A stretch of DNA of 64,000 bases. It comes from Octopus vulgaris (taxonomy: Eukaryota). The stretch spans positions 152,148,001-152,212,000 of the forward strand of contig OX597815.1 in assembly GCA_951406725.2 (NCBI GenBank). Direction: 5' to 3'. Shown in pieces: positions 3,026-39,300 of this stretch (within the stretch, counting starts at the first letter, position 1; every line of letters begins with the position of its first letter). The notes under the pieces were generated by a model, which worked only from the letters and a program-made list of their open reading frames with translations, had not been told where the DNA came from and searched no databases. The position numbers and the translations under genes are program-made.

Positions 3026-3186
3026 CGCTTCTTTCACCAATTATTTCCGTGTTATGTTGATCAAGCCCCAAATTATGCAATGTCTGTGATGTATTCAGAA
3101 TATCACGAATATTCTGCTCAACTTGATCTTTGGTTTTGTTTTGTACTGCACAATTTATTGTAAATATTTCTTTATTTGATTGCATT
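3026..3186 (-). CDS. SEA-like domain exon 3 [53 protein letters not shown]
   Basis: 161 bp, TTTCAG/GTGCGT, phase 2-1. Confidence 0.82.
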
Positions 3187-6100
3187 CTGAAACAGGATTA
3201 AAAAATAAACATAATTAGTTTTACCAACGCTTGCAGGAATTTTAGTACATGCGACCCTACCAAGATGGTTAAAATAAGCTGGTCTTGTTTTAGTAACAGA
3301 AATCTAAGTTTTATTGTTATATAACACTAATGGTGAGCTGACAGCATCACTAGCATCTTGGGCGAAATACTTTGCAGTATTTTGCCCGGCTTTATGTTTT
3401 TAGTTCAAATTCTGCTGAGGTCAATTTTCCCTTTCATCCTTTTGAGACTTATAAAAAAAGGACCAGTTGAACACTAGGGTCTATGCTATCGATTTAACTA
3501 CTCCTGGTTATCAAGTATAAAAACTGTATCCCACTGCTAAGACATGTTGAGCCAGTGTTGCTGAGTAGGCTCATCAAACCACTATGATCTCAAGCTTAAA
3601 TTTACAGCCTTCACATCAGAATAAGCTTGGTGGAGAGAATACAATGAGGACTACAGTGGATTGAACATTGCCTATTGAATCCAATCCAATGACACTGACA
3701 ACTGAAAGTCCTTTCTAGTAAAGGCACAAGAAGTGAAATTTTTGGGGTGAGGGAGCCAGTTGATTAGAATGGCTCCAGTACGCAACTGGTACTTAATTTA
3801 TTGACTCCGAAAGGATGAAAAGCAAAGTCAACCTCAACTCAGAATGTAGTGGCAGACGGAATACCGCTAAGCACTTTGCCCAGCATGCTTACGATTCTGT
3901 CAGCTCACAGCCCTGACAACTGAAAGTCCTGACAGGCCTTTATCTGCTGATAATGAAAGCCACTTTAACAAGACTGATATGTGTCAACCAGGACTTCTCA
4001 ATTTAACTTTGGTATAGCCACTATCTCAGACAAAAAAAGAAGTATCCTAAATTGCAGGAAGGGATCACTCGGCTAATTAGCAGAAAGTCACTTGCAGACA
4101 TATTCTAGCCTCTGTGTACTTTCCTTTTTCTGCCTTTCTACTGCTGCTTGAATAAAGTTTTCTCATTGGAGATGGCTGGACTCATGCCACCATCATTCAA
4201 CCATTTTTCTCCCATTTGTCCCCCCCACACACACACACATTCATCACCTTTGTTGTTTACAATCCTCCAGGTCATGAGCTAATCAATACACCCAACCCTT
4301 CCTTCCTAGAACGACCCTGTAATTTCCTCCCTCCTCATGTCTTTGCTGCACTCATTGACTTGAAAATAGCATCAAACTCACCAGCTCAGGAAGGCATACA
4401 AATCTCAATGGCTCTACTCACCTTCTCTCAGATTTAGTAAGTTAAAAAAACCTACAAAAACTACACCCCTTATTTTTCGAGCACTATCCAGAGTATTCAA
4501 GCAGTTCCAAGCAGTGCTGTTTTCTCTAAGTGCTCCACCCTTATTGCAGCCTCTATTTGTTCCATGTACTTCTCAAGATTTTTACTCACTGTTCCCAGGG
4601 CTCCAACAATTATTGGTACCACTACCACCTTTTTCAGCGACCACAACTGCTTAACATCCCAAGCTAAACTGTTATATCTATCGACTTTTATTTCTTCCTT
4701 ATTGCATACCTTGTTGTCAGCTGGACATACTATATCTATGATCCAGCATTGTTTGCTTTCTTTCTTAATTAAAACTATGTATGGTTTCTTATTCACATTA
4801 TTATTATTATCATTCAGTAGTCTTATTTTTATCCCGTGCTTTCATTGCACAACCGAGCGCAGCTCTGTGTGCCTTGGGTATGTGCTATGGTTTGTTGTGA
4901 TGCTCTTATGGTTACTGTATTGAAAGTGTTTTATGTAGGATGTATGCAGTGCCTAGTAGTGCTATTTTTTGTATGTTATATATATTTGTTAGTCCTGGTG
5001 TTTTTATTATATATTTGTCTGAATATTTTTAGCATACCTAATGTACCTATTATGACAGGAATTGTTACTGTTTTAAGACTCCTCATTCAAGTTACCACTA
5101 TTTCCAGGTCTTTGTATTTTAAAAGTTTTTCCGTTTCTTTTTGAGAAACATTATCATCTGTTGGTATTGATACATCAATTAGAAAGCATTTTTTTCTTCG
5201 TGATCTCTGACAACTATATCTGGCCTGTTGGCCTTAATTTCTCTATCTGTGTGTATTGGCATATCCCACAGTATGGTTGCTTTCTCATTTTCTCTGACCT
5301 TTTCCTACGTATGCCTATACCATCTTTTTTCTGCTGTTATTCCATAGTGTTGATAAAGCTTCCTGTGTATATAGGTACCAACTCTGTCGTGTCTGGGAAT
5401 ATATTCCTTCTTAGCCAGGACTGGGCAGCCAGAGACAATATGGTTTATTGTTTCTTATCCATCACCACATATTCTGCAGTTACTTGTTATGTTTCTTTCA
5501 TAATACGTTTTTGGTAATTTCTGGTGGTGAGGCTTTGGTTTTGTATTGCAATTAAACAACTGAGCTTCTCAGCCATTGTTGGGATTTTGCTTTGCCTATT
5601 TCTTTTGTGTTTAGTTTAATCCAGTATTTGCCATAAAGGGGCTTTTCTTATCATCGTTTTATCATGATCCATTGCTGTTCCAGTTTTAGTTTAGATTTCA
5701 TTTGTTTTACAGCTCTTGTTGTTTCTTCTTTTTCTTCATTGTTGTTGGGTACTATGACTTCTTTTTTGCATTTATCAGCTTCCCTACAGACTAAAAACAG
5801 TTTTTTGCTTTGTTCATGCTTTCTGGCTATTTGCATTAGTTTTCCTTGCTTCTGAAGTAGGTATTTTTGTAGACCTATGGTGGTTATTTTGTAATAGTTT
5901 TCTAGCTGCATAAGACCTCTGCCACCTTTTATACATTGTATATATAACCTTTCTATGTCAGATTTACGGTGGTGCATCCTAAGTCCTGTCATTATTTTTC
6001 TTATTTTCCTGTCTATTTTGATTAGTTCATTTAGTGTCCAGTTTAGGATATTGTAGCTGTAACTTATAATTGGGATGGCTAGAGTGTTGATACCTATTAT

Positions 6101-6945
6101 CTTGTTTTTCGTCTATAGTATTCTTTTTTTATATCTTCTCTTTCTTTTGTGTATGTTGTGTGTATTCATTGATTCCTAAGTATTATTTCATTTACTTTAT
6201 CTAGTATGATGTTGCTACTCTTCACTAGTTTTCCTCATTTCAAGGTTGCTTTGGCACATTTTTTTCTAAGCCAAATTTCATGTATATTTCTTTGATAAAT
6301 CCATGTACTGTCTGTAGTAATGCTTCCAGCTGTTTAGCATGTCAGACAAAGGTGTCAGTGCCAAGCAGAAAAGGAGTGGAGAGAGTGTGTCTCTCTGGAA
6401 TATCCCTCTTCTAATGGGTACGGCCTTGATTTTTATGAGTCCCTCTTTTATCTGGAGCTGTAGCAATGTCTGCCATTTATTCATGGAATGTGTTATATAT
6501 TTTATGATTATTGCTGCTACCTTGTTCATGGCTAGTGTTTCTAGGATCCATGTGTTGGGAATACTATGAAAAGCCTTTTGATAATCGATCCAGGCCATAC
6601 TTAGACCCTTCTTCTTTCTGTGACTGTCTTCAGTTATGGTTTTATTGATCATTAGCTGATCTTTACAGCCATATGAGCCCTTGCAGCATCCCTTCTGCTC
6701 TTCTGGAAACAGTTTGTTTTCTTCCAAATGCTTGCTCATCATCAGCGATTTTATTGCAGTAAAGGCTTTGTAAATTGTAGGGAGACAAGTTATTGGTCTG
6801 TAATTTTGTGGGTTTGCCGTTTCAGTGGATTTAGGAATTAGGGTAGTTTTCCATTCTGTGAGCCATTCAGGCATTGTCTCTGGCTCTGCTAGTATGTCAT
6901 TAAATTTCTCAACCAGCTTTCTATGTGTTCCTGTCAGATATTTTA

Positions 6946-6994
<49 letters not shown>

Positions 6995-9900
6995 CCATAG
7001 TAGTCGTTGTCATCATCGTCATAGTTGTAGTAGTAATAGTAGTTGTAGTATTAGTGGTGGTAGTGGTGGTGGTGGTGGTGGTAGTAGTAGTAGTAGAAGA
7101 CTGCAAGCTGGATGATTCGTTTGCATGCTAGACACAATGTTTTGCAACATTTTATCCATCTTTGCATTCTGAGTTTATATTCCTCCGAGGTTGATTTTAT
7201 CTTTCATTCTTTCAGAATCAAAAAAATAAGTGCCAGTTAAATACAGGGGTTTAATGTAATCGACTTATCTCCCAACCCAAATTTGCTGGCCTTGTGCCAA
7301 AATTTGAAACCGACATTATTATAATTATTATCAAGAGGGAAGTACTGTCCTCCAGTGAGTGTAATGAGAGGTGGGTGAAAGTAGCGAAAATGGCATGAGT
7401 GGATGGTACCTCTCTAAGAGTAGCTCTGTGAGTCAGAGAAGGGAAACCCTAACCCTTGGTGTCCAGTGGGGTTCCTTGATTATCCCTAGAGGATTATCCT
7501 TGTTCAGGACTGCTTATGTTCTGTAGAATAGTTAATGATATTAATAACAATAAAGAGAACGGAGATTTTTCACATCCATAATTTCACTTAACATCTATTT
7601 ACAGCATATTTTCTGGACCTGCACATGTTTCAACTGCAGCAACTGCACACTGTTGGATATGCAAGCTAACATCATGGTCGGTGCAGTTTCATCAGGGTCT
7701 TTCATGAGTGTGAAAAATCTCCATTCTCCTTATCATTATTAATATGATATATATATATATATATATGTATATATAAAATACATTGAGTATAGGACAGCAC
7801 CAATAAGTGAAAAACACGTAAACACATAATGAGAAAGGCTTCTTTCAGTTTCAATTCACCAAATACATTCCCAAGGCTTTGGCTGGCAAGAGCTAATAGA
7901 AGAAAGCACTCGCTCAAAGTGCCACACAAAAGGACTGAACCTGGAACCATACGGTTGAGAAGAAAACTTTTTACACACAGCCATTCCTGCACCTACTAGG
8001 AAATTTTACAGTATCTTTGAACAGCTGCATTTTCTGCATTTCTGTCTGTTTGTCTGTCTATCTGTCTGTCTGTCTATCTGTCTGTCTGTCTATCTGTCTG
8101 TTTATCTCTCTATCTCTCTATCTATCTATCACCTACAGAAAAGATTGAGAAGTACCTCGCTTCTGTGTGGAAATTCCGAAATTATGTGAATTGGGGGTGT
8201 AAATTTGCTACCATGCAAGTTTGCTTCCATATGGAAGAACTAGCAAAAAAGTTGTCAACGCTTACTCTGCACACAGACCATGTAACAATGGTACCTAGCT
8301 ACCTTGGTTGCAGAGTAACGAAAATAACAATAAACAATGTGCCTCCAGAAGTAGATACCCAGTGGCTGGAATCGGCCATATGCTTCGATATAGAAGAAGC
8401 AGATATTTTAGAAATCGCCGACATTCCAGAGGAAAGCTGGACTGGTAAAAAGCTCAAAATATTGCTTCAAATCTCCCAAGAAGCAATAAACAATTTACAA
8501 ACCAGTGTTCAACTGGCAAAAGATAAAAATTGGATGCAGTGGTGGAGGGCAGGAGGCCAAGATGCTATTTGTGCAACAGTGAGGCACATCTCAGATATGA
8601 CTGCCCAACTGCTGCCAGAAATAGGCAACAGCAACAGCAACCACTCCCAAAACCTGGAAGAAAACCCCTGCTACCCACACCACCTTCAACCCAAAAGACA
8701 GGAAAAACAGCAGACGATGCAAAAACTGTTTCCTCCTCACCAACCACATCACCAAGAAGAGAAACAACACCATCACAATTACTTTCGACATCGCAACCAA
8801 CTAAAGAAACACCACCACCACCAACATCAAAATACAGACCAAGACCAACACCAGCACCAAGAACAACAACCAAGAAAACAAATAACAATGGCGAAAAGAC
8901 AAATTCTGCCCCTAATACCCCAACAACACAAACACTACACAAAACAATAACACCTTCTACAAACACACATATAGACGCAAACGCTTTGCCTTTACCCCCT
9001 TCTGATTCGTTAGACTTTTCGTCTAACGACGAACGTTCGTCAGAATGGCAAATAGCCACCGGGGGTAAAAGAAAAAGATAAAAAAAACAAGAAAATGCAA
9101 CCAAAGCAGGGAGATATCTGAACCCTGAAAGCTTCTTACACAACCAAACCAGCACCAACACCACAAAAACACACACAATGCTATCAGCGATAGATGCCAA
9201 ATCTCAAAACTAATGGAGTACATCACAGCCCACACAAACATCTGTGAAGATGACTTCAAAACTAACAACCATCCACGCACTACACCGCTCAACCACATCA
9301 AAATACTACACATCACACAAACACAATACCACACACTCAAAGCCCTCTTTCCAAATGTGGTGGTGGGGGTGGGGGTTTCCAAAAGTATCTATGGAAAAAA
9401 TTCTATAAAAACCTCCTCCAAGACACATCAAAGGACAAGGAAGCCAAAACTTTCGACAAAAGCAAGTAACTCTCTGTACCTTCCTTTTTGTGTTTTAAAG
9501 CACATACCTCAATAGGATCATGGTCAAGATTGGTTGTGTGAATGCGCGTGGCTTGGGTCTCCTTGGAAACAAGGGTATCTCTTAAACGACATAAAGTCAC
9601 ACGATTTGGGAATCATCGCCATAAGTGAGACCAGACTCCACGAACCACGGGCCTTAAAGTCCATGTTTGGCGGACAGTTTAACATTTATTTTTATCCCTG
9701 TCTGCCGAGGATGGGTGGTAGTGGCACCGCGGTACTTTTTCACAAGAGCCTGGATCTCGAAGTCAAGACAATATTTGTAGACCCGGAGGGTAGACTGGTC
9801 ATCCTGGATGTCGACGGCAGCAATGGGTGCGCTTTTCGACTCGTATCAGTCTACTCACCGCCTTTAACAGGTCGGCCGGATTTCTTTCGACGTCTAGAAG

Positions 9901-13244: not shown

Positions 13245-13306
<62 letters not shown>

Positions 13307-14547: not shown

Positions 14548-14578
<31 letters not shown>

Positions 14579-17500
14579 CTATTTATTTATCTATCTATCT
14601 ATCTATCTATTTATCAATCTATTTATTTATTTATCTATCTATCTATCTGTCTATCTATTTATCTATTTATCTGTCTGTCTGTCTGTCTGTCTATCAATCT
14701 ATTTATTTATCTCTCTATCTATCTATCTATCTATCTCTCTATCTACCTATCTATCTCTCTATCTCTACCTATCTATCTCTCTATCTACCTATCTATTTAT
14801 CTATCTATAGATAAACAAGCACGAATACACATATTCACATGCATATATATGTGTTTACACAAATTATAGCCATCACTCACAAGAGGGCTACAATTTAGAA
14901 GCATGTATCAAGTAGATGCCCTTTGTTTCAGATGTCTCTGTCATTGTGAACAGACATTGGCACTCTATCGCATTTCCCCCCATTATCCAAAGGAACATCT
15001 AGATGTGACAGCCGGCGGGAGAGTTGGCTGTCGCCGTACAAAGCTGGTAATTACCTTAATCTGAGTCAACTGGAATAATGTAAAATGATATGTCCTGTTG
15101 AAGGGCACAACAAGCTGCCCCATCTGGGGATAGATCCTACAATCTATGATTGTCCAACTAATACTAGAACAGCTAGACTGCATGCTCTCACTCTCAGTCA
15201 CTCATTCACTCACGCACTCACTCACCCACTCACGCACTCACTCACTCACTCATTCACCCGCTTATTCATTCATCCACCCACTCACTTACCCACTCAATTA
15301 CTCACTCATTTATTCACTCACTGACTTATTCACCTACTCATTCACTCAGTCACCCATTCTTTCATTCACTCACTCACACATTCACTCACTCACTCATTCA
15401 TTCACTCACTTACTCACTCATTTATTCATTTGCGCACTCACTCACACATTCATTCATTCACCCACTCATTCATTTACTCACTCACTCATTCACTCTCACA
15501 CTCATTCATTCACTCACTCACTCATTTACTCACTCATTCACCTGTTCACTCACTCACTCATTCACTTGCTCACTTATTCACACACTCACTCACCCACTCA
15601 TTAATTCACTCACTGATTCACCCACTCACTCAGTCACCACTCATTCATTCACTCACTCAGCCACACATTCATTAACGCACTCATTCACCCATACACTCAC
15701 TCACTCACCCACTCATTCATTCATTCACTCACTCACCCACCCACTCAGTCACTCACACGCTCATTCATTCACCTACTCACTCATTCACTCACTCATTCAT
15801 TCACTCACTCATTCACCCACTCATTCATTCACTCACTCACTCAGTCAGCAACTCATTCCTTCACTCATTCACTGATTCACCCACTAACTCAGTCACACAC
15901 TCATTCACTCACTCACCCACTCATTCATTCACTCATTCCCTCAATCACTCACTCACCCACTCATTCAATCCTTCACCCATTCACTCACCCACTCATTCAT
16001 TCACCCACTCACTCACTCACTCACCCACTCATTCATTCATCCACTCACTCACCCACTCACTTACTCACACACCCACTCATTCACTCACTCACTCATTCAC
16101 TCACACACACACACACTCACACTCATTCACTCACTCACTCAATCACTCACACACACACACACTAACTCACTCACTCACCCATTTTGTAAGTAAAACAAAA
16201 ACGTACACATTTTTTATAGATATGTCATATGTCAAGAATATGGATTGTGGCATGTTTTATAACATCTTCAGGTGTGTTTCAGTGACTTTTAAATAAATAT
16301 TAGCAAAATTTATTTTTACTTTTACAAAAGATGTGTATAAATGGAAACGCTTGTGCTTACCCACAATATTCAACTTTGAATACACCTGTCATGCTTAAAA
16401 ACTCATGTTCCAGCTGCAATAGATGGATAAATATAACTGTTATTAAATACATGTAACTCCAGCCAATTGTGACAAGAGTCGTATATTAGTTTGTTCACTA
16501 ACACACACACATAAAAACATACACACTCACACAAAGAGAGACTCACACACTCGTGTATATACACACATATATATATTTATGTATATACATACATCATGCA
16601 TATATGCATACATATTTTACATATATGTTTTTAGCAATTTTTTGAAAGATTAATTTGACAGTTACTCATCGACCGCCGAATGAAACTGCGCTTGCGCGGT
16701 GAATTTGAAGAATTATAATGTATAACGAAGAGACACATGTTAAGCGTCTCTTAATTATGTTAGTGTTATGGCGTGGTCACTGATGAAAAATTTGCCTAGC
16801 AAATTATTTGTCAGTTTTGGCAAGGTTTTTACAGCTGGATGCCCTTCCCAACACCAACCACATTACAGTGTGGACCGGGTACTTTTAAGTGGCACCTACA
16901 CTGACAGGGTCACCAAGTACTTGCCAGGCAAAAACTTTTAAGAGGGGAGGAGGCATTGGAGGAGGTGGTGAGGAAAGAAAATACACAGTTGCCCATAACT
17001 GTTTCAACCGAGGAAGGTTTATGTAATAGATGTATTTCCCATTTCATACTACCCAAACCTGAAACGTAAGTATTAAATGATTTCAAAATATCATTATTCG
17101 GTTTGATTTCATTGTTATGTGTGTGTGTGTGTGTGCGCGCGCGCACACATGTATTAGTTGTAATAGATATGCATTAATTGTAATAAACCTAAGAAAGTGT
17201 ACACATTGTACATTTAGGTGTAATAAGAGCCTGTCTGGGTTTGACAGAGAAAAATTAGGAGCTCTCTTTTAACATAAAACCTTCGATTAAAAACAAAATG
17301 GATTCAGAACAGTGTTTTTTATTAGTCAACACAAATCTCGGATCCAGTGAGTATTTGAGTTTCACCTTGAAAGTAAATGGCGATGGTTGTCATTCACTTT
17401 GTGCAGTCCACTGTATGCTTAAGTCTAAATGTATTCATATGTTTGAACAAATTGTATATATATATATATATACGCTCTCTGTATGTCACTATATACATAC

Positions 17501-18092: not shown

Positions 18093-18126
<34 letters not shown>

Positions 18127-18240
18127 GGAGTAAACACATAAATGTGAAACAAGGTGGAAAAAAAGAGTACTGTCCGACGAACGGGAACGTGAAACTCAGA
18201 GTACCAGGTTTTGTTGAATTTTCTGCTGCTTTAAAGTAAA

Positions 18241-23460: not shown

Positions 23461-23518
<58 letters not shown>

Positions 23519-26217
23519 TGCTCATGTGAACTGCTCATATCCTACGCAAAATACTTTCTATGTAATCTCAAGTTTTAAAACAAACAATTTTCTTATGGTT
23601 TCTTAAACATTCTCTAGAACAACAGTATGTACAAAACCAAATATATGGCACCCTAGGCATAACACCAACATGAACTTCCAACTTGTTGTCTCTTGAGGTC
23701 TCTGGGTGAGACTTGGAGCCAGCTTGTACAAATGTAAAGCAAAATTCAAACATAAAATAATAACAACAATAACAACAACATCGAAAAATAATTAGGAATG
23801 AGATCCCAGGTTCGAGATTTCCCCAAGGCATCTCATGATGGTTGGAAGGTATATCAGTCGAAACGTTATTAACAACAAACAAGATGAAGACAAATATCCA
23901 TCAAATGTAAATAATGTACATAATTCCTCATCTCTTAAGCATAGAACTGTACATATGCGAACATGGTCTCTCGTCCATTCTGAGTACTTTTATTCCATAC
24001 TGACATAAAAATGCACATTAGGTCACTGTTCCGAATATAAAGTTTTAAAATAATTTCCATTGTGAAATGATTCAATGTTTGTATATTTCATAGAAAAGTA
24101 ATATTTTGAAAAGCCAATCAAATGAAACTTCAAATTTACAGATATCTTTTACCAAACAAACAAACAAAATAACACACACTACTTAAGGTATTGAGTCCTT
24201 TGTTGAGTTGTGTTTTGCACTTTTCTTGTAACATTTTTTTTTATAATACATACACATGAACTATTATAAATATAGGTGTAGGTATAGCTGTATTGTTAAA
24301 ATGTGCGTTTCAAAACACCATGGTTACGAGTACAGTCTTACTGCCCAGCACCATGGGCAAGAGTCTTTAACAATAGGCCTGAGTGCATTGTCAATAAATT
24401 TAATGGACAAAAACTTTGCAAACATACGTACGCATATATATGTGCGTGTGCGTGTGTACGGAAATGTCAAACGATGAAAATGAGTGCTCAAAACCACATT
24501 GGTGGATATAATTTCTTTATTTGTGAATTATGGCTACCATTGGTTTCATGTTTAAAAAAGGGTGGAAAATATCCTAGTGTCTTAATTTTTCAAACTGGTC
24601 ATATGGAGAAAGGTGTTCACCTCCATTTTGGAAAACAGTGTTGTATGTGTATGTATATATATGTGTAAATGTATGCATGTATATGTTAGTGTGAATATCT
24701 GTTTGTGTTTGTCTCTTTTTGTATCATGTGTTTATGGTGTTTGCTTACGTTCTTGTAACTTAGCAGTTCAGTAGGTAAGAGAGCCAATAAAACAAGCACC
24801 AGCCTTTGAAAATAATAGAGGTAATTTTATCGACTGAATTCCATTAAAGCAATGCCCAACTATGGCTGTAGTCTAATGATTGAAACCAGTAAAAGAGTAA
24901 AAGTTTATACAGAAGGAGAAGATAAAAGTAAGAAGTGAAACAGTTACTCACAGATCTGGATATGTTTTCATTTAACGGTCGGTTCTGGCTCCCAGAAGTC
25001 ATTGTGTAAATCAGATGGAATTCCAAAATATTGTGCCACCCTATGGAAGAATATAAAAAACAGAAGAGAATCAATGAGATATAAATGAGATCCATTGAAG
25101 ATATAAATATAAAGTAATTGCTGCAAAATACATTTAAGATTTATAAGTTACTATTGAGTCTTACTTCTGAATAAGCAATGCAACATTCTCACTTTTAAGT
25201 TTATTGCCGTGCAATTTCTATAGAATTCCAAGCCAGCACTGCAAGTTACGACGTTTAGTATACAAATACATTTTTGTAAACAATGCGATCGAAGATAAAG
25301 AAAATAAGTATTGGGTGTACATACATATTTCCAGGGTTATTGCTCTTTCATCAGCACCACTTCCCACCCTTTAACTATCCACAAATGCATTGCTAAAATA
25401 CCCAATAAACCTGGAGGTGTAAGACTATTGGATAGACCAATTTACTTATCTGACACATCCCTGGTGACTCGTATGTACACATTAATCATTAGCAAGGACA
25501 CAATGTTTTGTTCTGCAGCTATAATATACTACCAGATCTAAACATAAATATATCTATAATAACAGTATCATCATCATTTTAACATCCACTTTCCATGCTA
25601 GCATGGGTTGGTCGGTTTTACTGAGGACTGGCAAACCAGATGGCTGCACCAGGCTCCAATCTGATCTGGCAGAGTTTCTACAGCTGGATACCCTTCCTAA
25701 CACCAACCACTCCGAGAGTGCAGTGGGTGCTTTAACGTGCCACAGGCACGAGGACCAGTCAGGCGGTACTGGCAACAGCCAAGCTCAAATGGTGTATTTT
25801 ATGTGCCACCTGCACAGGATCCAGTCCAGCAGCACAGGCAACGGCCTCACTCGAATGGTTTTTCACGTGCCACCGGCACAAGTGTCAGTAAGGCAACGCT
25901 GGTAAGGATCACGCTTCAATGGTGCACAGAAGCCAGTCAGCTGCTCTGGCAGCAATTACGCTCGGTTGGTGCTCTTAGCGCTCCGCTAGCACGGATAACA
26001 GTTTGGTGAGTAATGCAGAGAGAAAGGAAGCTGTCAACAGATCCAGTACACATAAAACTGACAAGTGCTTGAGCACCATACAATTCAATTTTTCTGTCAA
26101 CCATAGGAGAGAGAGAAAGAGTACAGAACTGTTAAAATCGGTTGGACGGTGTGGGAGGAGTTAGAGTAACCCCAAACACACACAGAGACAGACACCATTA
26201 CGTACACACACACATAC

Positions 26218-26248
<31 letters not shown>

Positions 26249-27321: not shown

Positions 27322-27356
<35 letters not shown>

Positions 27357-30300
27357 GTATGTACATACACGCACACACACATACGTATAGTTACATATGT
27401 ATATATATTCATACAGTCAATCATTTTACATGTCTATTATCTCACTAAAACTTTAAAAGCAAATTTCTGTTTTATTCCTACTTTAATACATGGGTACACA
27501 CACTCACACACTACATGATATATATATATGAAGAAATATTGGTCATAGAACAAACATTAAATTCGTGTCGACGACTTTATATAACACCATACCTCAAGCA
27601 TTTAAACAGATATAAATATCACCATGGTTCTTAAACACATAAAAGATATTTTAAAAAATACATATGCATAAAAACACAGAAGGTAAAAATATATGTGCAA
27701 ATAAAATACGAATAGAACGGCCTGTCATAAGAGGTAAATATAAATGACTAAAAAATCATAAAAAAGTGTGCCATACTCTTTTACTTGTTTCAGTCATTTG
27801 ACTTCGACCATGCTGGAGCACCGCCTTTAGTCAAGCAAATCGACCCCAGGACTTATTCTTTGTAAACCTAGTACTTATTCTAGCGGTCTCTTTTGCCAAA
27901 CCGCTAAGTTACAGGGATGTAAACACACCAGCATCGGTTGTCAAGCGATGTTGGGGTCACAAGCACAGACACACAAACATATACACACATATATATACGA
28001 TGGGCTTCTTTCAGTTTCCATCTATCAAATCCACACACAAGGCTATGGTCGGCCTGAGGCTATAGTAGAAGACAATTACCCAAGGTGCCACACAGTAGGA
28101 TTGAACCTGGAACCATGTGGTTGGTAAGCAAACTACTTACGACACAGCCAGTCCTGTGCTTCACTACCCCCACCCCCCAAAAAAACTAAAAAACTAAGAT
28201 AAAATAAAATATCAAACAACTAAAAAAGTTTTGCCAAATGATTAAAAATATTTTTTAAAGTTTTTTTCCTTCCCTCATTTATTTTTGTCTCACATTTGAA
28301 CACTTCTTTTTTGCAGTCCTATAAACCCTTTTGTTTCTAAAAGAAGAGACAAATACTATTTCTTGTTGTATATATATATGTATATATATATGTATATATA
28401 TATACCAGGGTAAGCACACAAATACGAAACAAGGTGGAAAAAATAGTACTCGAATACCAGAGGGAGAGTAATATGCTTTATTAAAAAGCAGCAAAAATAT
28501 CAAAAAAACTGTTACTCAGAGTTTTACATTCCCGTTTGTCAAACAGTTTTTTTTTTGGGGTGGGGGAAGCAAAAATAAGGCCAGAATTTTTCAAAAGCTC
28601 GATAATGCTCATGTGGCATCGATTTTTGCAAGCTCAATCGGGCATTTGAAGGAAAATTCTCATAACGATATTATTTTTCCTGCAGCTTTTGTATTTTTTG
28701 TCCAATTTTGATGAAAATCAATGAGTGAGCGAGGCACATGGCAGTGAGTTGATGTCAGTATATAGCATTTACAAAAAGTTGATAATTACGCCTGAGCAGT
28801 GGCTTTATAAAATCAATAGGCTTTTTACATGCAAATACCCACAGGGATTTTATTTTTTACTGTAACTTTTATATTCTTCGTCTGATTTTAATGAAATTTG
28901 AGATGAGATTTAGGTCAATTTTGTGGTAGGGGAGACGGCAAAGGTTTTAATTTAATTCCAGAGGAATTCGAAGGGCACAAGAGTGTTTCAGCTTTTCAAA
29001 AAAAAAAAAAAGAATAAACACAAAAAAACACAACGCAAGGACGTGGTACAAGTAATGTATTAGCAGTCGCCCAGGGAAGGAAAGCAAGATGGTTTAACAT
29101 TTCGAAGACATGCTCTTCTTTGGAAACAGGTAAGTCCAATAGAAGGGAAGACAGAAGAAAACGATACACACACGCACACATACATACATATATATATATA
29201 TATACACACACACACGACTGCATGTATGTGTGTATATATGTCGTGCCAAGACGTCTTGCAATCATATATCAATAGTTTGTGAGATTAAATCTGATTCCTT
29301 GGCAAAGGTGATATTTTTATAGGTTCCCATGGAATTATTGACCCTTGCTTCCCACATACTACTATCGTGCTTGCTAAAGTATTGTTATGTCATGTTTTAT
29401 ATATAATTATCGTAAAATATTTTCTCATATGTCAATTATATAACGACTTAACCATTAATAAATCAGGCACAATTACATCAGAGAATAAACGACACTTACC
29501 ATAGAAACCTCTCTTGTTACACAACTTTCCAGTGCAACAATTAACACAAGAAGTTCCACTACTCCATGTCTTACAAGTAAGGGCATTGTTTCCCATAGCT
29601 TCAACACATTTTCTGTATGTGCTGCAGGATCTTTCTAACTTCCATGTCACACCAGTCATTGACATTGTATTCTGACATACAGCCTGTAATAATAAATATA
29701 AAAGTTATATACTGCTACTCCTGCTGCTTCAGTTGTTGTTGCTGCTGCTGCTGCTGCTACTACTACTAACAATGATTATAAAAATATTGTTTGTTTTATC
29801 ATCCACAAAGGCACTAAAGGGCATAAAAACATGAAACTTCCAGAAGTTACAAAGAAAGAAAGTATAACGTTTGTATATACAAAGAGAAGGACGTTATATG
29901 ATACAGGGAACGAAGTATTAGGAATTTTAAAGGTACACACATGCACACACACACACATACAAGCATATACATACACATATATATATACACACACACACAG
30001 ACATATATATATAATATATCACCATCATCATAGTTTAACGTCTGCTTTCCATGCTGGCATGGGCTGCACGGTTTCACTGAGGGCTGGCAAGCCAGGAGGC
30101 TGCACCAGGCTCCAATCTGATCTGGCAATGTTTCTACAGCTGGATGCCCTTCCTAACGCCAACCACTCCGAGAGTGTAGTGGATGCTTTTTACGTGCCAC
30201 TGGCTCCAGGGGCCAGTCAGGGGATACTGGCATCAGCTGTATATATACACACACGCACACACACATATGCATGGCATAGTGGTTACAGTGTTGCACTCAT

Positions 30301-33300
30301 GATTGCGAGATTGTGGTTTCAATTCCCAGACCAGGCATTGCATTGTATTCTTGAGCAAAGCACTTCATTTTACACTGCTCTGCAATCATTTTGTCATCTG
30401 ACATGTAGCACATGGTGTACATGTACAGGTAATGTCGATATGATGGAGGGAATGAGCTTATGTGAACACAGACGTTTGATCACTATAAACAATCATCAGT
30501 GTTGTTGTTTGGTAAGAATTTGCAAGACTCTCATACATCGTCTAACGACAAAAGAGTCCATAACAAGCAAATTTATATATACAGAACAAACAAATTAGCT
30601 GGTTATAAAATATCTATAAGAGATAAAATCATTAGCAATACTGAGAAGTAATGTTTATCGCCACTTAAACATGGCTCTTCCATAGAGACTTACATTAAAT
30701 TGAAAGATAACAGGACACTTTTTGCAAAGAACATATTAGTTATTTTTAACGCCGAGAGGACGCCTCTTCCAGCTGGTTATTCGATACAATCTACACCCAA
30801 TATATACCATGTATATTCCAAACAGGGGAGAGAACCCCCACATTTTTCAAGTCACGAGACCACTTGACTATACGGTTTCAACATCTTTGTGGTCATACAC
30901 ACTGGTGGATACTCGCGCACTAGAAATAGCAGGAGTTCACTCCAGCTAGCAATACATTGAAAACAAAGTCACACATGGTCACTGATCTTGCAACAAGCAA
31001 ACTAGTTCATTTCCTTATTGCAAGATCAGTGACTATGTGTCGTTTGTTTTTCTATGACTCTTCTGAGGGATATCTTCTTTCTATAAGATGAATTTAGATG
31101 ATTTAGGACTCAAATAATCGTGATGAAAGTATTTTGAAGGAAGATATCATAACATCAACTCATAAGACAATATTTACACAGTTTTCAGATATTTATATTT
31201 TAGTGACATATTACAACACAAAAGTAAAAAATAACATCTTAATTTACCTCGGCACCTGGACAAATTGTCACATCAGAATCAGTGCACTTGTTTGTTGAAC
31301 ACGTTTGACATTGCAAATTCTCTTGAAAAAGTTTGTAGTCTAAAGAATTAAAAAAAATATCAACAGTTAGGAATCAGACTCATTATGTATCGAAATAATA
31401 TGAAATATTTAGTTTGTGATGAAGAGTAAATGTGAATGTGGTCGTGCGGAGATCAATACATAATAAATATAAGTTAAATTGAATGTGGAGTGATAAGGTA
31501 TTAACTTTGAGTTTTAATTTAAATACGGTGATATTTTTCAACATTAAACTAACAAATGAACGTAATTAAATGTTTAAATTAGTATTGTTTACAAAATACA
31601 AAATCATCATCATCATCATCATCGTTTAACGTCCGCTTTCCATGCTAGCATGGGTTGGACGGTTCAATTGGGGTCTGGCAAGCCCGAAGGCTACACCAGG
31701 CCAGTCAGATTTGGCAGTGTTTCTACAGCTGGATGCCCTTCCTAACGCCAACCACTCCGAGAGTGTAGTGGGTGATTTTATGTGCCACCGACACAGGTGC
31801 CAGACGAGGCTGGCAGACGGCCACACTCGGATGGTGTTTTTTATGTGCCACCAACACAGGTGCCAGACGAGGCTGGCAGACGGCCACGCTCGGATGGTGT
31901 TTTTTTTATGTGCCACCGACACAGGTGCCAGACGAGGCTGGCAGACGGCCACGCTCGGATATGGTGTTTTCGGTGTTTTTCTTATGTGCCACCGACACAA
32001 GTGCCAGACGAGGCTGGCGAACGGCTACGATCGGATGGTGTTTGTTACGTGCCCACAGCACGGAGGCCAGTCGATGCGGTACTGGCTATGGTCCCGTTCG
32101 GATGGTTTTCTTATGTGCCACCGGCACTGGTACCACAGGAATACAAATTCCATTGATGTTCATCTATTTTGATTTGGTTTGGCTTGATTCGATTTGACTT
32201 GCCTCAACAGGTCTTCACAAGTGTCACAAGCAGGAAGGTATGCACAGGTGGACTGACTACGTCCCAGGTAGGGGCCACGGGTTATGGCTTCACTAGTCTT
32301 GCCGGGTCTTCTCACGCACAGCATACTTCCATAGGTCTCGGTCTCTAGTCATTTCCATGGTGAAACCTAACATTCGAAGATCGTGCTTCACCACCTCGTC
32401 CCAGGTTTTCCTGGGTCTACCTCTTCCACGGGTTCCCTCAACTGCTAGGGATTGGCACTTTCTCACACACCTATCTTCATCCATTCTCGCCACATGACCA
32501 TACCAGCGCAATCGTCTCTCTTGCACGCAACAACTGATGCTTCTTAGGTACAACATTTCTCTCAGGGAACTAACGCTCTGTCGAGTAAGTACACTGACAT
32601 TACACATCCATCGGAGCATACTGGCTTCATTCCTCATGAGCTTACGCATGTCCTCAGTAGTCACGGCCCATGTTTCACTGCCATGTAGCATGGCAGTTCG
32701 AACACATGCATCATACAGTCTGCCCTTTACTCTGAGCGAGAGGCCTTTAGTCACCAGCAGAGGTAAGAGCTCCCTAAACTTTGCCCAGGCTATTCTTATT
32801 CTAGCAGTTACACTCTCAGCGCACCCACCCCCACTGCTGACTTGGTCACCTAGATAACGGAAGCTATCAACTACTTCTAATTTTTCCCCCTGGAAAGTGA
32901 CGGAAGTTGTTTTCTGCAGATTTTCGGAGGTCAATGCTCCCGAGCATCTGCCACATATAAAAACTATATTCCCAGTTAGCCTACCTTTGACATTGCTGCA
33001 CCTCTTATGTGTCCATAGCTTACACTGGGTGCATCTTATAGAGTTTCTACCTACACCTTTTCTACAGATCGAGCAGGGCCATCTTCCTGAGGACATTTGT
33101 GGATTGCCTACCTTTCTACTTATTAGTACTTTGGTTTTAGCTAGGTTGACTCTAAGGCCCCTCGCTTCTAAACCCTCCTTCCACACCTGGAACTTCTCCT
33201 CCAGTTCTGATAGTGACTCAGCAATTAGAGCGAGGTCGTCAGCATAGAGGAGCTCCCAGGGGCAACCTGTCTTGAATTCCTCTGTTATTGCCTGGAGGAC

Positions 33301-36300
33301 TATGATAAATAGGAGGGGGCTGAGTACTGAACCCTGGTGGACCCCAACCTCTACTTTGAATTCTTCTGTGTACATGTTGCCAACCCTAACCTTGCTTACG
33401 GCATCTCTGTACATGGCTTGCACAGCCCTCACCAGCCATTCATCTATCCCTAGTTTCCTCATTGACCACCAGATGAGGGATCGGGGGACCCTATCAAAGG
33501 CTTTCTCCATATCAATGAAAGCCAGGTACAGGGGCTTATCTTTGGCTAGGTATTTCTCCTGCAGCTGCCTTACCAGGAATATAGCATCAGTGGTACTTTT
33601 CCCTGGCACAAACCCAAACTGCATCTCATCTAAACTAACTCTCTCTCTAATTAGTTGGGCTATGACCCTCTCCGTAACCTTCATTACCTGATCCAACAGC
33701 TTGATACCTCTGTAATTATTTGTATCTAGGGCATCACCTTTACCTTTGTAGCAGTTGACTAGTATGCTGCTACACCAGTCATTGGGTATGACTCCTTCGT
33801 GTATCACCTGGTTGACTATACGGGTGACTAGGTTATAGCCGACACTGCCAGATATTTTGAGCATCTCTGCAGTAATTTCTGATGGGCCTGGGGCTTTCCC
33901 TGTCTTCATGCTTCTAATTGCCTTAGCTACCACGGAACTATCAACTCGGATAGCTGGTCCCTCTGTTGGGTCAACATTCGGCAGACTCTCTTTATCCCAT
34001 TCATTTTCTTTATTCAGCAACCTTTCATAGTGGCATCTCCAAACCTCTCTCTTTGCATCCTCATTTAGCGCAAGTGAACCATCATCCATGCGAACACACT
34101 TCTCTCCTACCACATCACGATTCTCTCTCACACACTGTCTTGCAACACGAAATACCTCAAGTCTTTCATCCTCACGGCGCAGAACATTGGCAAATTTTTT
34201 CTTATCTGCTTCCCCTCTGGCTAAATAAACCTGTCTCCTAGCCTCCCTTCTGGCTGTCTGATACAATTCCCTGCTACCACCGTTCTTCCAGTCCTTCCAA
34301 GCCTGTCTCTTTTGTCTAATAGCCCTGTCAACCACAGTGTTCCACCATCATGTTACTCCGGGTTGAGATGGTACTTTGCTCCATCCACAGATCTGGTCAG
34401 TGGTTGTCAGCAGATTGTCCCGTAGAAATCTCCAGTTGTCTTCCACATTAAGTGAAGCTATATCCTCTTCTATTTCGTCAAAGGCTTCGAGTAGTGTTTA
34501 AATTTTTTAAAAACTATTCATGGTGTGGAGAGAAATATTTCTTTGAATTAACCTCATTGTATTACTGGTTCATGTTTATTGGGGGTGATTGAACGGTCAA
34601 ACTGATATCATCTGAGAGCACAGGAGGCCCAAAACCAAACCCTGTAACTTATATCATCTGATGGGATACGACTGATGCCAAAACAGTATGTTTTCAGTAA
34701 CAACAATGATAACAATTACAATTCAGTTTTTGCTTTAACACAACGCCACAAATATTTGGGATGCTTGTCATTATATTCACCATCATCATTTAACGTCCAC
34801 TTTCGATGCTAGCATGGGTTGGACGGTTTGATTAAGGACTGTCGAGCCAGGAGGCTGCACCAGGCTCCAATCTGATCTGGTAAAGTTTCTACAACTTGAT
34901 GCCGTTCCAAACGCCAACCACTCAGAGTGTAGTATTTGCTTTTTACAAGCCACTGGCACAGGAGCAAGTCAGGTAGTACTGATATTGGTGACACTCAATG
35001 GTGCTTTTTACATGCCACGGGCACGGGATCCAGTTAGGTGGAACTGGCAAAAACCATGCTCAAATGGTGCTTTTTATGTGCCACCGACACAGGAATCGGT
35101 CAAGCAGCATTGGCAACAACCACACTCGAGTGGTCCTTTTTATGTGCCACTGGCATTAGTATTTATTCTGTATGGGTAGTTTAGATCAGTCTACTGAAGA
35201 ACGACTTGCTCAGAGTCGCTTGCTATGATGTAGTGCTAAAAAGAATCTAAAAGGAGGACAACTGCACAGAAAGCAAGAGTCCCACCGGCTTCTGATTCTG
35301 ATGTTACAGACCCCCTTTGTAACCATTGATTTCATTCCTAAAATGGGCTTAAAGTCACCTCAGGACTCACAAAGAGACATTAAAGATGACCCTGATAATA
35401 ATAATAATATATTTCATCGACCCTAAAAATATGAAAGGTGAAGTGCACATCGGCAGGACTTCAATACAGAACTTAAAGGTATGTTGCTAAATATTGCAAA
35501 TGCTTTTGGTCACTCATCTATTGGTCATATCATTATCCTCCAAAATGAGGCTAGTAATAATAAAGTAACAACGAAAGCAAAGAAAATTTTTAACTACTTT
35601 CACATTGTGAATATTGCAATATATCTGTTAAGCTGTTTTGGTCATTTAGGCAAGAGCCATAAACATTCATATATCTGCTATATTCTTGCTTCATATAATC
35701 AACAAAAGCTGGCAGATGGCATCCACAGGCCATGTTGTCATTGTGTCTCAGGTCACTGTAATTATAGAGAGAAGATCAACAAAATTTGCATAAGATCAAT
35801 TGAGAAATCTTTGATTTAATTTGACTCAAGAATCATGTAATTTAGAAATTATATAACGTCTGTGTGTGTGTGTGTGCGTGCGTGCATGGGTGCATGTGAG
35901 TGTATGGCATTATTCAGTTTTATTTCAAGATTTCTTGCCAATAGAGAAAGAGCCAGTTTCTAACCTAGAACCAAGGCTCCTTCATTGGAATTTCAACATC
36001 AACAACATGGTATGTATGTATGTATGTATGTATGTATGTGCAGATTTTTATATTTTAGGTATGAATTCTCAGGCATATAGTTGCATATTTAGACATGCTC
36101 ATATATTTAAATGATAAACTTCTGGAAAGTTTTACTGATTTTTACAGTTCCAGCATTGGATTGGATCTGTAGTCTTCGAATTAGATTTCTCCTTTCTAGT
36201 TTGGAGAAGCCTGATATCTCAAGATTGATAATTAGGCAGTGTATTACCTATCTCAGGGCCCCAATAATTACAGATACGAACCTGAAGTTGTAATCTGGAT

Positions 36301-39300
36301 AGAGTAACTGCAGATTTGTTTGTTTGTTTGTTTGTTTGTGTGTGTGTGTGTGCGTGTGTGTGTATGTATGTATGTATGTATGTATGAATGCATGCATGTA
36401 TGTACAGAGTGTTCGGGCTAAATTTGTTTGCATAAAAGGTAAAAAAACCACAATATCCCATTGAAACTAAAATTATTTAAAAAAATAAAATGTTCCAACT
36501 AGATTATGGCTGGTAGATAACAGTTTACCCAGAATAGCCACACTCAGCTTCCACTGCGGGCTCAAGACAGCTCCAGAACCTGGCGATGCGTCCCTCACTC
36601 TGCCCCTCTAAAAATCCTTGAAGGCCTCCTTGATCTTGGCCACCTCTTACTTGAATGCAGCCTTGACAATGACAAAGCACAATACTTGGAAATAGTTGCT
36701 TTAACCCAATAAGATTTAAACAAATGTATCACTATTTATTGTCAAGTTTTAAACCAACTATTGTGAATTTGAAAATATCTTTTTATAAAGTGTTTGATTT
36801 TCTTATAAACAAAGAACTTTGATATGCTTACATGTTAGTTAGGCTGGAGAGGAATAAGAAAGCACCATCTTCATACCCTTGTATTTGGTTATTGCTCATA
36901 TTTCTGAAAGAAAGAAATAGATAAATATTATGTATGTTAAAATCAGTAAAAGGCAATAAAGCTGTTTTCTCCAGTTTGTAAGTGTTGAAAGTTTTTTTAA
37001 GTCCCCACTGACTCAGTAAATTCTCACGAACATGGGGCAGTTCTTTATTTTTCTGTATGATTCTCCTGTGTATTTTGGAAAGGGTTGAATACATCAATCT
37101 GACTTGGATGTGCTAATGAAAACAAAACTCTTTTGTGAAGTCCCAATAACACAATAAAGAGCAAAATATAATACAAGTAAAAACCACAACAATGTTGAAG
37201 GTGCCAGCTGAGCAAAGAAGGATGTTTAAAAAGCTTGGTTTTGGAAACAAGCCTCCCTTTTTGCGCAGGTGATACGCTGAGACACAAAAAGCTGCATCAA
37301 AAACAGTAAATAAAAACGTTTAAGCCTAAGTTGTGGAAGGTTTAGGAGTTAATCTGGATGCTGACTTAAGATTAGCCAATAAAATATTCTGGTAGACACC
37401 CACTCGACTTTGTAAAAAGAAGCACTCTGCTATTAAGAACTCAGCTGTAGTTCTTCTCCTTGCAGAGAAGAGCACCCTTGGGAGCTGGAGAGAATACTTT
37501 CATTATTTCCAAAGTCCAGTCGCAATAAAATCTTCTGATAGACATGAGATGCATTTATGGAAGAAGCTAAACTTCCAGATGTCAGAGAGGAGATTAAAGT
37601 ATTCGAAAGTGGTGAGGCTGCTGGAGAGTATGAAATTCGATGAGTAATATTAAAAAACCTTAAATAGAGATGGTATTCTCTCAGGCTGACTCATGTATGC
37701 CAGATGGTTTGGACCTCTAGAAAGATACCAATCCAATGGCAATCTGGGGTGATATTCAAAATTTTTAAAAAGGGAATGTATAGAGGAATCTCCTTGTTGA
37801 GCCTCCTTGGTAAAGCCTAGGCTAGGTGTCAGAAAAAAGAAGTGTAAGTAAATTGCTGAGCCCAAGCTAACTGAAGGAATGAGTAGCATCTCTCCTGAAT
37901 GCAGCACAACCAACCAGATATTCACTCTACAGTATATCTTCAAGAAATCGAGGGAATATTGCAAAGATGCATACGATTTCTTTGTAGACCTTGAAAAGGC
38001 ATATAACCATGATGGTGATACATGCTGTGGAGAATTTATGATTATTGAGCATTTTCTGGTTGCTGTGAAGTTCCTATCTGTATGCCCTGGTGTCGACTTA
38101 TAGTAAATAAATCTTCGTACAGAATAAAGGATTAATTCAATTAATGGAACAGCCTGCTCATGAAATTAATGTGTAAGTGGTTGAGCATTCCACACTTGCA
38201 TGACACAGAGTGTGACAAAGACAGCTTTTTGAATTACAACTCGTTTTTGTCAGCCAAGTGGGCTGGAGCAACAAGAAATAACGTGTCTTGATCCAGGACA
38301 CAATGCATCAGCAGGAATCGAACTCAAATCTTACAATTGAATACCCTAAGCCACTTGCCTTCATATATATATATATTCAAGTTTGTTGAATTATGATAAA
38401 AAAATTTACATTAAATTGAAAGATAACAGGACACTTTTTGCAAAGAACATATTTATTATCCTTTTACAAGAATAGTGTTGACAATGACTTCAAAGGTTCG
38501 GTCTATTTAGCCTTTATCGGACTGTCAATCCAATAAAAGCAAATCTAGCCGAAACTTTGATGTTACTGTCGATACATGCAGTGGCTTTTAGAACTAGCAA
38601 GTCGCTTGCATTTTTTGTTGCAGATGTGGCATTCATATCCATGTGTTGCAAGTAAGTGTTCTCTTGGCACAACACCTTGATTATGAACTTTTATGTGCCT
38701 TATGAGTTCAGATCAGCTGGAAAATTTCTTACTACATATCAGATTCGCTATCAGAAATTGTTATATGTCATAAACATCTGTTATGCATATGATACATAAA
38801 AAGTCAAGGAAGGCAGTGTAAATACATGATATCTCAGATGCTTAAATATCACATGTGCATTCACATAACGGCACAGACCTGTGTGTGTGTGAGAGACAGA
38901 GAGAGACAAAGAGGGAAAAAGAAAGAGAGAGAGAGCATATGTAGATAAAATAAGAGAGACTGGGAGAGATAAACTGAGAAAAAGTGATAGACGGGGACAA
39001 TAAATTTTTAGAAGTGTTATCGAAACTCTTTCAGCAAGTCAAATCCAACTTACAATGTCCTTAAATTGCTAAGGGTGTTGAAAGTTCCTGCTCCAATATA
39101 CGTGATGTCATTATGAAGGAGAGATCTGTAACATAAAAATGGAACCACTAAGAAGCTATACAGAACAGATTTGTTAAAAATATAACATATTAGGGTTAAA
39201 TTTAATATAAAATAAGAAATTGTTATTTACAGAAAATGAAAAATTAGTATGAATGAAATCAAACAAAATAGAGATATTTTGGTTAAATTTAATATGTGCT

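Follow-up and report, generated by a model that had tools for sequence, protein, structure and literature searches.

LRR, three-finger and SEA-like exons of Octopus vulgaris are predicted to encode part of an adhesion GPCR ectodomain

A 64,000-nucleotide stretch of the Octopus vulgaris genome (hereafter, the window) raises the question of which protein carries a minus-strand exon series that places a cysteine-rich domain and a further domain of about 100 aa behind a set of LRRs. The original prediction read this series as LRRs, LRRCT, LU and SEA-like domain, belonging either to a lineage-specific adhesion GPCR or to a single-pass receptor. Between positions 36903 and 3026, which are the exact first and last bases of the series, seven GT-AG exons form a single open frame of 269 aa, and all seven have AG/GT ends and compatible phases. 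The predicted product was identical to residues 521-789 of O. sinensis XP_029651540.2 at 257 of 269 positions without a gap, and tblastn recovered every one of the seven exons (E 8e-8 or better). Because of these two matches, the exon series and its shared frame are, judged from sequence comparison, far beyond chance. No further downstream exon was found by tblastn in positions 1-3025, and the exons for HormR, GAIN/GPS and 7TM are expected beyond the left edge of the window.

Eleven LRR exons lie upstream of the series, all on the minus strand (62254..62325, 60704..60775, 57392..57463, 54467..54538, 50652..50723, 49871..49942, 48607..48678, 45527..45598, 43996..44067, 43316..43387 and 39054..39125). 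Together with the seven exons they make up 533 codons without a stop, and splice sites are canonical in all 18 modelled exons. Every LRR exon is 72 nt long and in phase 2-2, including the last one (36832..36903), which is identical to unit 20 of O. sinensis at 23 of 23 residues, and the introns between them are in phase 2. The LRR C-terminal cap (LRRCT) follows in one exon (35598..35755; phase 2 in, phase 1 out). The same strand also holds remnants of the array, namely a truncated half pseudo-exon (63166..63198), a decayed 61-nt exon that would shift the frame if used and is the counterpart of O. sinensis unit 9 (55696..55756), and a decayed 63-nt copy of the LRR exon that follows it, with an in-frame stop (55153..55215). 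At the window edge, the 3′ end of another LRR exon (63968..64000) shares 97% identity with the 3′ portion of exon 54538-54467 and is followed by GTAAGT.

The cysteine-rich domain is encoded by two minus-strand exons, one with the first four Cys (31248..31339; phase 1 in) and one with eight Cys including CCxxxxCN (29500..29683; phase 1 out). The segment comprises 79 aa with 12 Cys at spacings of 2,4,7,6,16,5,10,8,2,0,4 and shows the LU signature, with a CxxC start, a CCxxxxCN end and conserved Cys spacing. When the second exon was compared with PDB sequences, all three matches were LU folds (ACVR1 twice, LYPD1), and its eight Cys all aligned to LYPD1 without gaps. Structure models were made from the orthologous proteins P0001 (597-869) and P0003 rather than from the window's own peptide, and the LU model of the ortholog reached a pLDDT of 74.5. 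LYPD1 was its best match in Foldseek (probability 1.00, TM 0.64, with a modest E of 0.02) and in VIA (Z 7.2, modest at < 8; rmsd 2.7 over 78 aligned residues), and rows 1-32 of the VIA output were all proteins that we take to be three-finger folds. Pfam by itself recognised neither LU nor SEA in the orthologs; for P0001 this held at E ≤ 1, with no match to UPAR_LY6 or Toxin_TOLIP, and a weak Toxin_TOLIP match (E 7) appeared in the Dreissena protein P0051. The predicted domain is thus almost certainly an LU domain with a three-finger fold closest to Lynx2/LYPD1, and the initial LU assignment agrees with the Cys spacing, the PDB sequences and both structural searches. Twelve Cys, initially regarded as above the usual number, are nothing out of the ordinary, since human LYPD1 shows an identical Cys pattern in the half compared. 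Most octopus paralogs retain all 12. Both Dreissena proteins have 10 Cys in LU, and in P0051 the last Cys pair has been lost together, as expected for a disulfide. A venom three-finger toxin was also considered and ruled out, as the domain forms an internal part of a receptor and the expression share of the ortholog in the posterior salivary gland is 0.

The last three exons encode strand 1 and the start of helix 1 (24952..25040; phase 1 in), the end of helix 1 and strand 2 (16361..16413), and strand 3, helix 2 and strand 4 (3026..3186; phase 1 out). Alternative acceptors spotted by eye near 18520 and 17060 have no counterpart in P0001. The segment of about 100 aa differs from P0001 at three residues only, and its model showed a ferredoxin-like strand-helix-strand-strand-helix-strand order (pLDDT 73-89). 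In Foldseek, the sole match at E ≤ 0.001 was the zebrafish Gpr126 ectodomain (E 5e-4). In VIA, SEA entries ranked 3 and 5 (TMPRSS6 Z 7.9, MUC16 Z 7.7), near or tied with unrelated folds, and two unrelated ferredoxin-fold proteins outranked them (Z 9.0 and 8.2). Pfam found SEA at the homologous place in one of seven proteins scanned, Argonauta P0039, with an E of 0.013 that is below the curated cut-off. These results suggest that the ferredoxin-like domain is likely SEA. A SEA/ferredoxin-like domain lacking GSVVV had been anticipated, and both the predicted fold and the Gpr126 match are consistent with it; P0001-P0003 contain no GS[VI]x[VI]/GSVVV autoproteolysis motif. Among 48 family SEA segments, GS[VIT]x[VI] occurred in three, all from one other gene, and a furin site in none; self-cleavage or furin cleavage within SEA was ruled out by this motif scan. 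The three-domain model as a whole was mediocre (mean pLDDT 63, pTM 0.56). The three introns that precede LU, separate LU from SEA and follow SEA are all in phase 1, so the phase-1 borders described earlier are present on both sides of each module. Modular exon loss would fit three paralog models (gene predictions) that lack precisely the SEA module.

The identity of the protein was read from orthologs. In the tree, the window gene, P0001, P0002 and P0003 formed one clade with 99/99 support; deep nodes were unresolved and the bootstrap had not fully settled, and only the ortholog clade was used. The O. sinensis ortholog LOC115224769 is an adhesion GPCR with LRRs, GPS and 7TM. Pfam identified LRR_8, GPS (E 4e-13) and 7tm_2 (E 2e-12) in P0001, GPS in P0002 (E 4e-13) and P0003 (E 1e-13), and 7tm_2 in P0003/P0076 (E 1e-23). 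A family profile matched ADGRG2 (E 2e-109) and ADGRG6 (E 8e-102) best among PDB sequences. The window exons therefore very probably represent the middle of an octopus adhesion GPCR ectodomain, as one half of the original prediction proposed. The other half, a single-pass protein, does not hold for the orthologs. The lack of a 7TM exon in the window, and some paralog models that finish without 7TM, might point to LRR-LU-SEA as a protein of its own (single-pass, GPI-anchored or secreted), but this is highly improbable, as a phase-1 donor closes the last exon without a stop, exactly where P0001 enters HormR, and all three orthologs run on into GAIN/GPS.

The layout is not restricted to octopuses. 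A phmmer scan gave 41 matches, of which 18 were looked up: 17 were traced to Octopus (14), Argonauta, Dreissena and a gastropod (one each), the last being a small stand-alone LU protein, and the other was a Logan protein. The chain is shared with Argonauta, the Logan protein and two genes of the bivalve Dreissena. These occurrences contradict the lineage-specific origin suggested initially; an octopus-specific origin is ruled out by the Argonauta and Dreissena chains, and the layout is older than cephalopods. A word-based search with the Dreissena region returned only two Dreissena proteins among 1507 candidates, and the ESM Atlas gave no usable match for P0030 225-435 or P0051 170-480. No oyster, gastropod or echinoderm receptors were found, which at the limited sensitivity of these searches does not indicate absence.

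The GPS, 7TM, hinge residues and Death domain discussed below were read in orthologs of other species, outside the window. The O. sinensis model P0001 lacks TM1-2 and retains a 39-aa Death-like remnant, and the O. vulgaris model terminates within 7TM; the receptor in these species may be decaying or mis-modelled. Such truncations, together with the decayed LRR exons in the window and several paralog models without 7TM, could indicate a decaying or decoy paralog whose ectodomain is still made, perhaps shed or tethered, and whose transmembrane half is silent. We consider this doubtful, however, since none of the 18 modelled exons contains a stop and all have canonical splice sites, nothing is missing from the O. 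bimaculoides ortholog, which shows tissue-specific expression, and genes whose introns are this long and full of repeats are often mis-modelled. That ortholog, A0A0L8FLR8 (Ocbimv22014869m), falls in the same 90% cluster as P0003, is listed in octopus adhesion GPCR group 3 and has expression shares of 0.71 in skin and 0.17 in sucker (Tau 0.96), according to Ritschard et al. (2019; PMC6408891, supplement 2). Given the 99/99 clade containing P0003 and the shared cluster, the window gene is, on this sequence evidence, orthologous to a group 3 member.

P0003/P0076 also contain a Pfam Death domain (E 3e-6 and 1e-6). Combined with expression in skin and sucker, this could suggest a skin immune or self-recognition receptor with Toll/MyD88-like Death-domain output, diversified by gain, loss or putative skipping of symmetric 72-nt LRR exons. 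LRR turnover is consistent with this idea: orthologs carry 17-20 LRRs, with exon gain and decay accounting for the variation (20 in one, 17 in another and yet another set in the window), and a pair of neighbouring paralog models in O. vulgaris shows a length difference of exactly 72 aa, or three LRRs. However, symmetric 72-nt exons are a common feature of LRR genes, a whole Death domain occurs in one species only, and Ritschard et al. (PMC6408891) detected positive selection at no site in any of the expanded groups. This interpretation is therefore improbable.

The two orthologs with 7TM, P0001 and P0003, have lost both activation glycines: position 6.50 is R and position 7.50 is S. Elsewhere in the family, Gly is retained at 6.50 in 12 of 13 members and at 7.50 in all 13. 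G6.50 and G7.50 have been described as essential for activation (bioRxiv 2026.03.05.709805, also the source of the numbering). Their loss concerns the mode of signalling and leaves the assignment to the adhesion GPCR family untouched. P0003 additionally has Asp at Stachel position 7, and the 7tm_2 score is 84 bits versus 102-144 in the four other scanned relatives with a 7TM match. Atypical signalling of the receptor is thus slightly favoured. The orthologs retain W6.53, N7.46xxQ7.49 and the Stachel F3xxL6, which argues for some remaining activity. These residues, together with HL|T at the GPS and ADGRG2 and G6 as nearest solved relatives, would also suit an ordinary ADGRG2/G6-like receptor, in which the N-terminal fragment comes off under ligand or force, 7TM and a G protein (by analogy Gs) are switched on by the Stachel, and the receptor tolerates the glycine changes; this mechanism is documented for Adgrg6 in the accessible part of PMC11475505. 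Most paralogs retain both glycines and most likely operate in this way. For the present gene this mode is a less probable alternative, given the two substituted hinges, the Asp and the low 7tm_2 score.

We prefer, at a probability of roughly 0.7, an adhesion GPCR of the skin surface that likely serves both adhesion and ligand binding, with predicted self-cleavage at the GPS and likely weak or no usual tethered-agonist G-protein output. The predicted chain would run from an LRR solenoid and LRR cap through a Lynx2-type LU and a likely SEA into the HormR-GAIN-7TM of the orthologs. If ADGRG6 is taken as a guide, LRRs and LU might bind an extracellular protein that belongs to an adjoining cell or to the matrix. 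The uncleaved SEA-HormR-GAIN stalk could carry this binding head and transmit force. Lacking the helix-kink glycines, signalling might be low or Stachel-independent, and in O. bimaculoides output may pass through the C-terminal Death domain. If hinge loss and the Death domain do mean a changed output, octopus skin would offer a natural adhesion GPCR rewired away from G proteins; if not, the result is a useful annotation of an orphan receptor. A bolder and quite speculative proposal is an old bilaterian LRR-LU-SEA adhesion GPCR subfamily, present in molluscs and probably as starfish LyAr2 and absent from vertebrate-based naming, whose octopus skin and sucker derivative lost the G-protein switch, multiplied LRR exons and gained a Death domain, becoming a Toll-like recognition receptor on an adhesion GPCR chassis that might serve immune sensing or self-recognition in the skin.

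Several components of this receptor have been described before. Its ortholog is a member of the octopus-expanded group 3 (Ritschard et al. 2019; PMC6408891); in the accessible portions of that study, neither Ly-6/uPAR nor ‘SEA domain’ is entered in the InterPro table, and LU, SEA, LRR exon turnover and lost hinge glycines are not discussed. The present annotation fills a gap of 200 residues in this published expansion. LU-bearing GPCRs have been reported in starfish, molluscs and arthropods (PMC11595613, PMC13719153). The initial view that LRR, LU and SEA form no recognised family holds in part, since the full LRR-LU-SEA-HormR-GAIN chain was not found in the literature searched, but a published group 3 ortholog and LU-bearing GPCRs exist. 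Starfish LyAr2, compared by its published description (PMC9410279, PMC11595613, PMC13719153), is alike in having one ectodomain LU in a receptor annotated as ‘aGPCR G2/G6-like’. Its LU resembles Lynx2 most closely and occupies residues 224-305 of 1113 aa, a position matching those in Dreissena P0051 (222-303 of 1077) and P0030 (233-312 of 1155). The 2026 survey among these papers differs in that SEA is not among the named domains and octopus is not mentioned in its text; its figure legend lists LRR and GPS, and an LRR-LU-GPS-7TM layout may already be drawn there.

LYPD1/Lynx2, the best structural match to the octopus LU, agrees with it in Cys pattern throughout the C-terminal half, but it is a small GPI-anchored protein, whereas the octopus LU is internal to a receptor. 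At about 20% identity, nicotinic-receptor modulation is not transferable to the octopus domain. ADGRA2/A3 (GPR124/125) have an LRR-LRRCT head followed by HormR-GAIN-7TM, with an Ig domain instead of LU-SEA; one paralog is automatically named ‘A3-like’, but the family 7TM is closer to ADGRG. ADGRG6/GPR126, with ADGRG2 and G4, shares the SEA-HormR-GAIN-7TM stalk and gives the best structural and GAIN-7TM sequence matches. It differs in its CUB-PTX head, which is LRR-LU in the octopus receptor (Pfam matched neither CUB nor pentraxin in the orthologs and relatives scanned), and in the furin site that the SEA of the present family lacks. Adgrg6 in the strict sense has been reported to occur in jawed vertebrates only; thus, ‘G6-like’ denotes similarity, not orthology. 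The octopus receptor represents a little-described form within a receptor family already known rather than a new system, and through it the SEA-HormR-GAIN stalk of vertebrate ADGRG6 has a counterpart in invertebrates that bears a different head.

Spliced in silico, the 18 exons found in the window all carry AG/GT ends and join into a stop-free minus-strand frame of 533 codons. Twelve are intact 72-nt LRR exons (62325 to 36832), and six further exons follow the LRR array (35755-35598, 31339-31248, 29683-29500, 25040-24952, 16413-16361 and 3186-3026). The product of the 36903-3026 exons comprises 269 aa and is identical, ungapped, at 257 of 269 positions to the O. sinensis protein XP_029651540.2 (P0001) and at 223 of 241 to the O. 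vulgaris model P0002. The Cys-rich segment contains 12 Cys in 79 aa; phase 1 introns lie on both sides of this segment and of the SEA-like domain, and phase 2 introns separate the LRR exons. The open frame, intron phases and ortholog identity bear out the original prediction of an LRR-LRRCT-LU-SEA-like ectodomain with phase 1 borders, in description and coordinates alike.

Besides its 20 LRRs, P0001 (1566 aa) carries a GPS (E 4e-13) as well as a 7tm_2 domain; therefore, of the two receptor types initially considered, adhesion GPCR and single-pass receptor, the window gene is the former. Judging from P0001, its HormR, GAIN and 7TM exons are predicted to lie left of the window, and a tblastn search of window positions 1-3025 found none of them. 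The best solved relatives of the family profile were ADGRG2, ADGRG6, ADGRL3 and ADGRG4. In an LU-SEA tree of 23 rows (35 sequences covering the region, minus 12 isoform or cluster duplicates), the window gene, P0001, P0002 and the O. bimaculoides ortholog P0003 formed one group with support of 99/99. UniProt A0A0L8FLR8, which sits in the 90% cluster of P0003, is Ocbimv22014869m, a member of group 3, an octopus-expanded aGPCR clade (Ritschard et al. 2019; PMC6408891). In that paper, LRRs are given for 5 of the 22 group 3 members and a Death domain is reported in Ocbimv22014869m alone. Its expression table assigns this gene a skin share of 0.71, a sucker share of 0.17 and a share of 0 for axial nerve cord as well as for posterior salivary gland (Tau 0.96).

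The LU assignment draws on several comparisons, none individually strong, whose agreement is strong. The three PDB sequences matched by LU exon 2 of the window, all weakly (E 0.025-5.7), were LU-fold proteins (ACVR1 twice and LYPD1), and all eight Cys of this exon aligned in register with LYPD1. A model built from the domain of the O. bimaculoides ortholog (pLDDT 74.5) placed LYPD1/Lynx2 top in both Foldseek (E 0.02, probability 1.00, TM 0.64) and VIA (Z 7.2, rmsd 2.7, 78 residues), and every entry in the first 32 VIA rows is a three-finger protein. The LU of the Dreissena proteins has 10 Cys, the final Cys pair of one of them (P0051) having been dropped together.

The SEA-like domain has the ferredoxin-like element order in a model of P0001 residues 597-869 (mean pLDDT 63; 73-89 over most of the domain). 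Its only Foldseek match at E<=0.001 was the zebrafish Gpr126 ectodomain, where SEA-HormR-GAIN stands at the equivalent place (PMC11475505). In VIA, TMPRSS6 ranked third (Z 7.9) and the MUC16 SEA fifth (Z 7.7), with unrelated ferredoxin folds above them (Z 9.0 and 8.2). A Pfam SEA match was obtained in the Argonauta relative (P0039) only, below the cut-off (E 0.013); the first SEA loop is shorter in most octopus paralogs than in Argonauta, Dreissena and the Logan protein P0030, which may explain the failure of Pfam on the octopus segments. These similarities make SEA identity likely, short of proof. A GSVVV-type motif was absent from the orthologs' SEA segments and a furin site from all 48 family SEA segments; the domain is therefore predicted to remain uncleaved. 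Many octopus paralogs have two SEA Cys, in strands 2 and 3, and Dreissena and P0030 have one; the pair is possibly a disulfide gained in octopus.

Gene predictions suggested that these modules are separable. Three O. sinensis models (P0019, P0066 and P0022) lack exactly the phase-1-bounded SEA module, with an LU-HormR gap of 7 residues versus the usual 100-120 or so; two models (P0011 and P0012) lack HormR, and four (P0005, P0014, P0015 and P0068) have a second partial SEA. Turnover of the LRR array is rapid. LRR units number 20 in O. sinensis and 17 in O. bimaculoides (a stricter LRR pattern missed one unit), as against 3-6 in Dreissena, in P0030 and in the Argonauta model, which is partial. 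Unit-to-unit identity within P0001 is highest at lags 4 and 8. The window lacks exons matching P0001 units 17-18. It contains, on the minus strand, two decayed LRR pseudo-exons (55756-55696 and 55215-55153) with both splice sites kept and a frame-shifting length or in-frame stop, and half of another (63198-63166). LRR exons with their introns have recently been duplicated within the gene (43851-46411 versus 60559-63135, 42735-43555 versus 56722-57637 and 53692-54499 versus 63197-64000; 86-95% identity), and the duplicated blocks include some that match at 94-95%. Symmetric LRR exons are common. The adjacent O. vulgaris paralog models P0005 and P0015 differ by an exact 72-aa block of three LRRs, which hints either that LRR exons are skipped or that these are tandem copies.

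The introns also harbour mobile elements. In a plus-strand LINE (8021-12733), an ORF1-like frame is accompanied by an Exo_endo_phos endonuclease (E 1e-14) and by a reverse transcriptase that is interrupted (RVT_1, E 9e-15). The LRRCT-LU intron holds an open minus-strand reverse-transcriptase frame of 684 aa (32296-34347; RVT_1, E 5e-32) into which a PHD/C1-like finger (E 4e-4) has been inserted. Five remnants (6281-7009, 52013-52843 and 41774-42376 on the minus strand; 22077-23463 and 59511-60313 on the plus strand) derive from further elements: some are reverse transcriptases, one piece is of GIY-YIG (Penelope-like) type and one is a Tc1/mariner-like transposase (DDE_3). Pfam matched nothing in the 22077-22505 piece, which was assigned by eye. 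A degenerate CTCA tetranucleotide repeat of about 1 kb (15193-16178) follows shortly downstream of the SEA exon of 53 nt.

If ADGRG6 is taken as the model, the LRR-LU head would bind a putative extracellular protein and the SEA-HormR-GAIN stalk would link it to the membrane, with GPS cleavage predicted from an HL|T motif. The hinge, GPS, 7TM and Death features were read from orthologs and all lie outside the window. In both 7TM-bearing orthologs (P0001 and P0003), position 6.50 is Arg and position 7.50 is Ser, although Gly is kept by 12 of 13 relatives at the former and by all 13 at the latter; both orthologs also lack the TM5 Asn. A preprint describes these glycines as essential to the activating kinks and links their absence with Stachel-independent receptors (bioRxiv 2026.03.05.709805). 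A Death domain is present in O. bimaculoides (P0003/P0076), and a 39-aa remnant persists in O. sinensis (score 81, reached by none of 1000 shuffles). The C-terminal tails carry Ser/Thr/Gln repeats in P0003/P0076 and 12-aa tandem repeats in P0001. Atypical signalling in the ortholog clade is put at slightly better than even odds (roughly 0.55). W6.53, NxxQ and F3xxL6 are kept in the orthologs, which counts against over-reading an atypical output, and canonical signalling despite the hinge substitutions is a less probable, tentative alternative. The 7TM is incomplete in the models from O. sinensis and from O. vulgaris, which calls for the same caution; that the receptor is decaying or serves as a decoy appears improbable.

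Several components are already known from earlier work: the expanded octopus gene family in which LRRs and a Death domain occur (PMC6408891), GPCRs of starfish, molluscs and arthropods that carry an LU (PMC9410279, PMC11595613, PMC13719153) and SEA in ADGRG6 (PMC11475505). A figure legend of a 2026 survey names LRR and GPS, and its figure may already draw LRR-LU-GPS-7TM (PMC13719153). Within the literature searched, which excluded most subscription papers, we found neither the combined LRR-LU-SEA-HormR-GAIN chain nor any mention of an LU or a SEA domain in the octopus group 3 receptors or of this clade's hinge-glycine loss.

Many paralogs from three Octopus species have the LRR-LU-SEA-HormR-GAIN-7TM chain, as do a partial model from Argonauta hians and two genes of Dreissena polymorpha; it is therefore common at least to cephalopods and bivalves. 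It likewise occurs in P0030 (1155 aa), whose 4.2-kb contig we infer to be a spliced transcript; comparison of P0030 with P0051 gave 31% over 1088 aligned columns. Two starfish proteins annotated as aGPCR G2/G6-like, each with a single LU (residues 224-305 of 1113 in LyAr2, 186-244 of 1022 in XP_033635539.1), fit as candidate members of the same LRR-LU-SEA subfamily. The LU of LyAr2 is described as closest to Lynx2.
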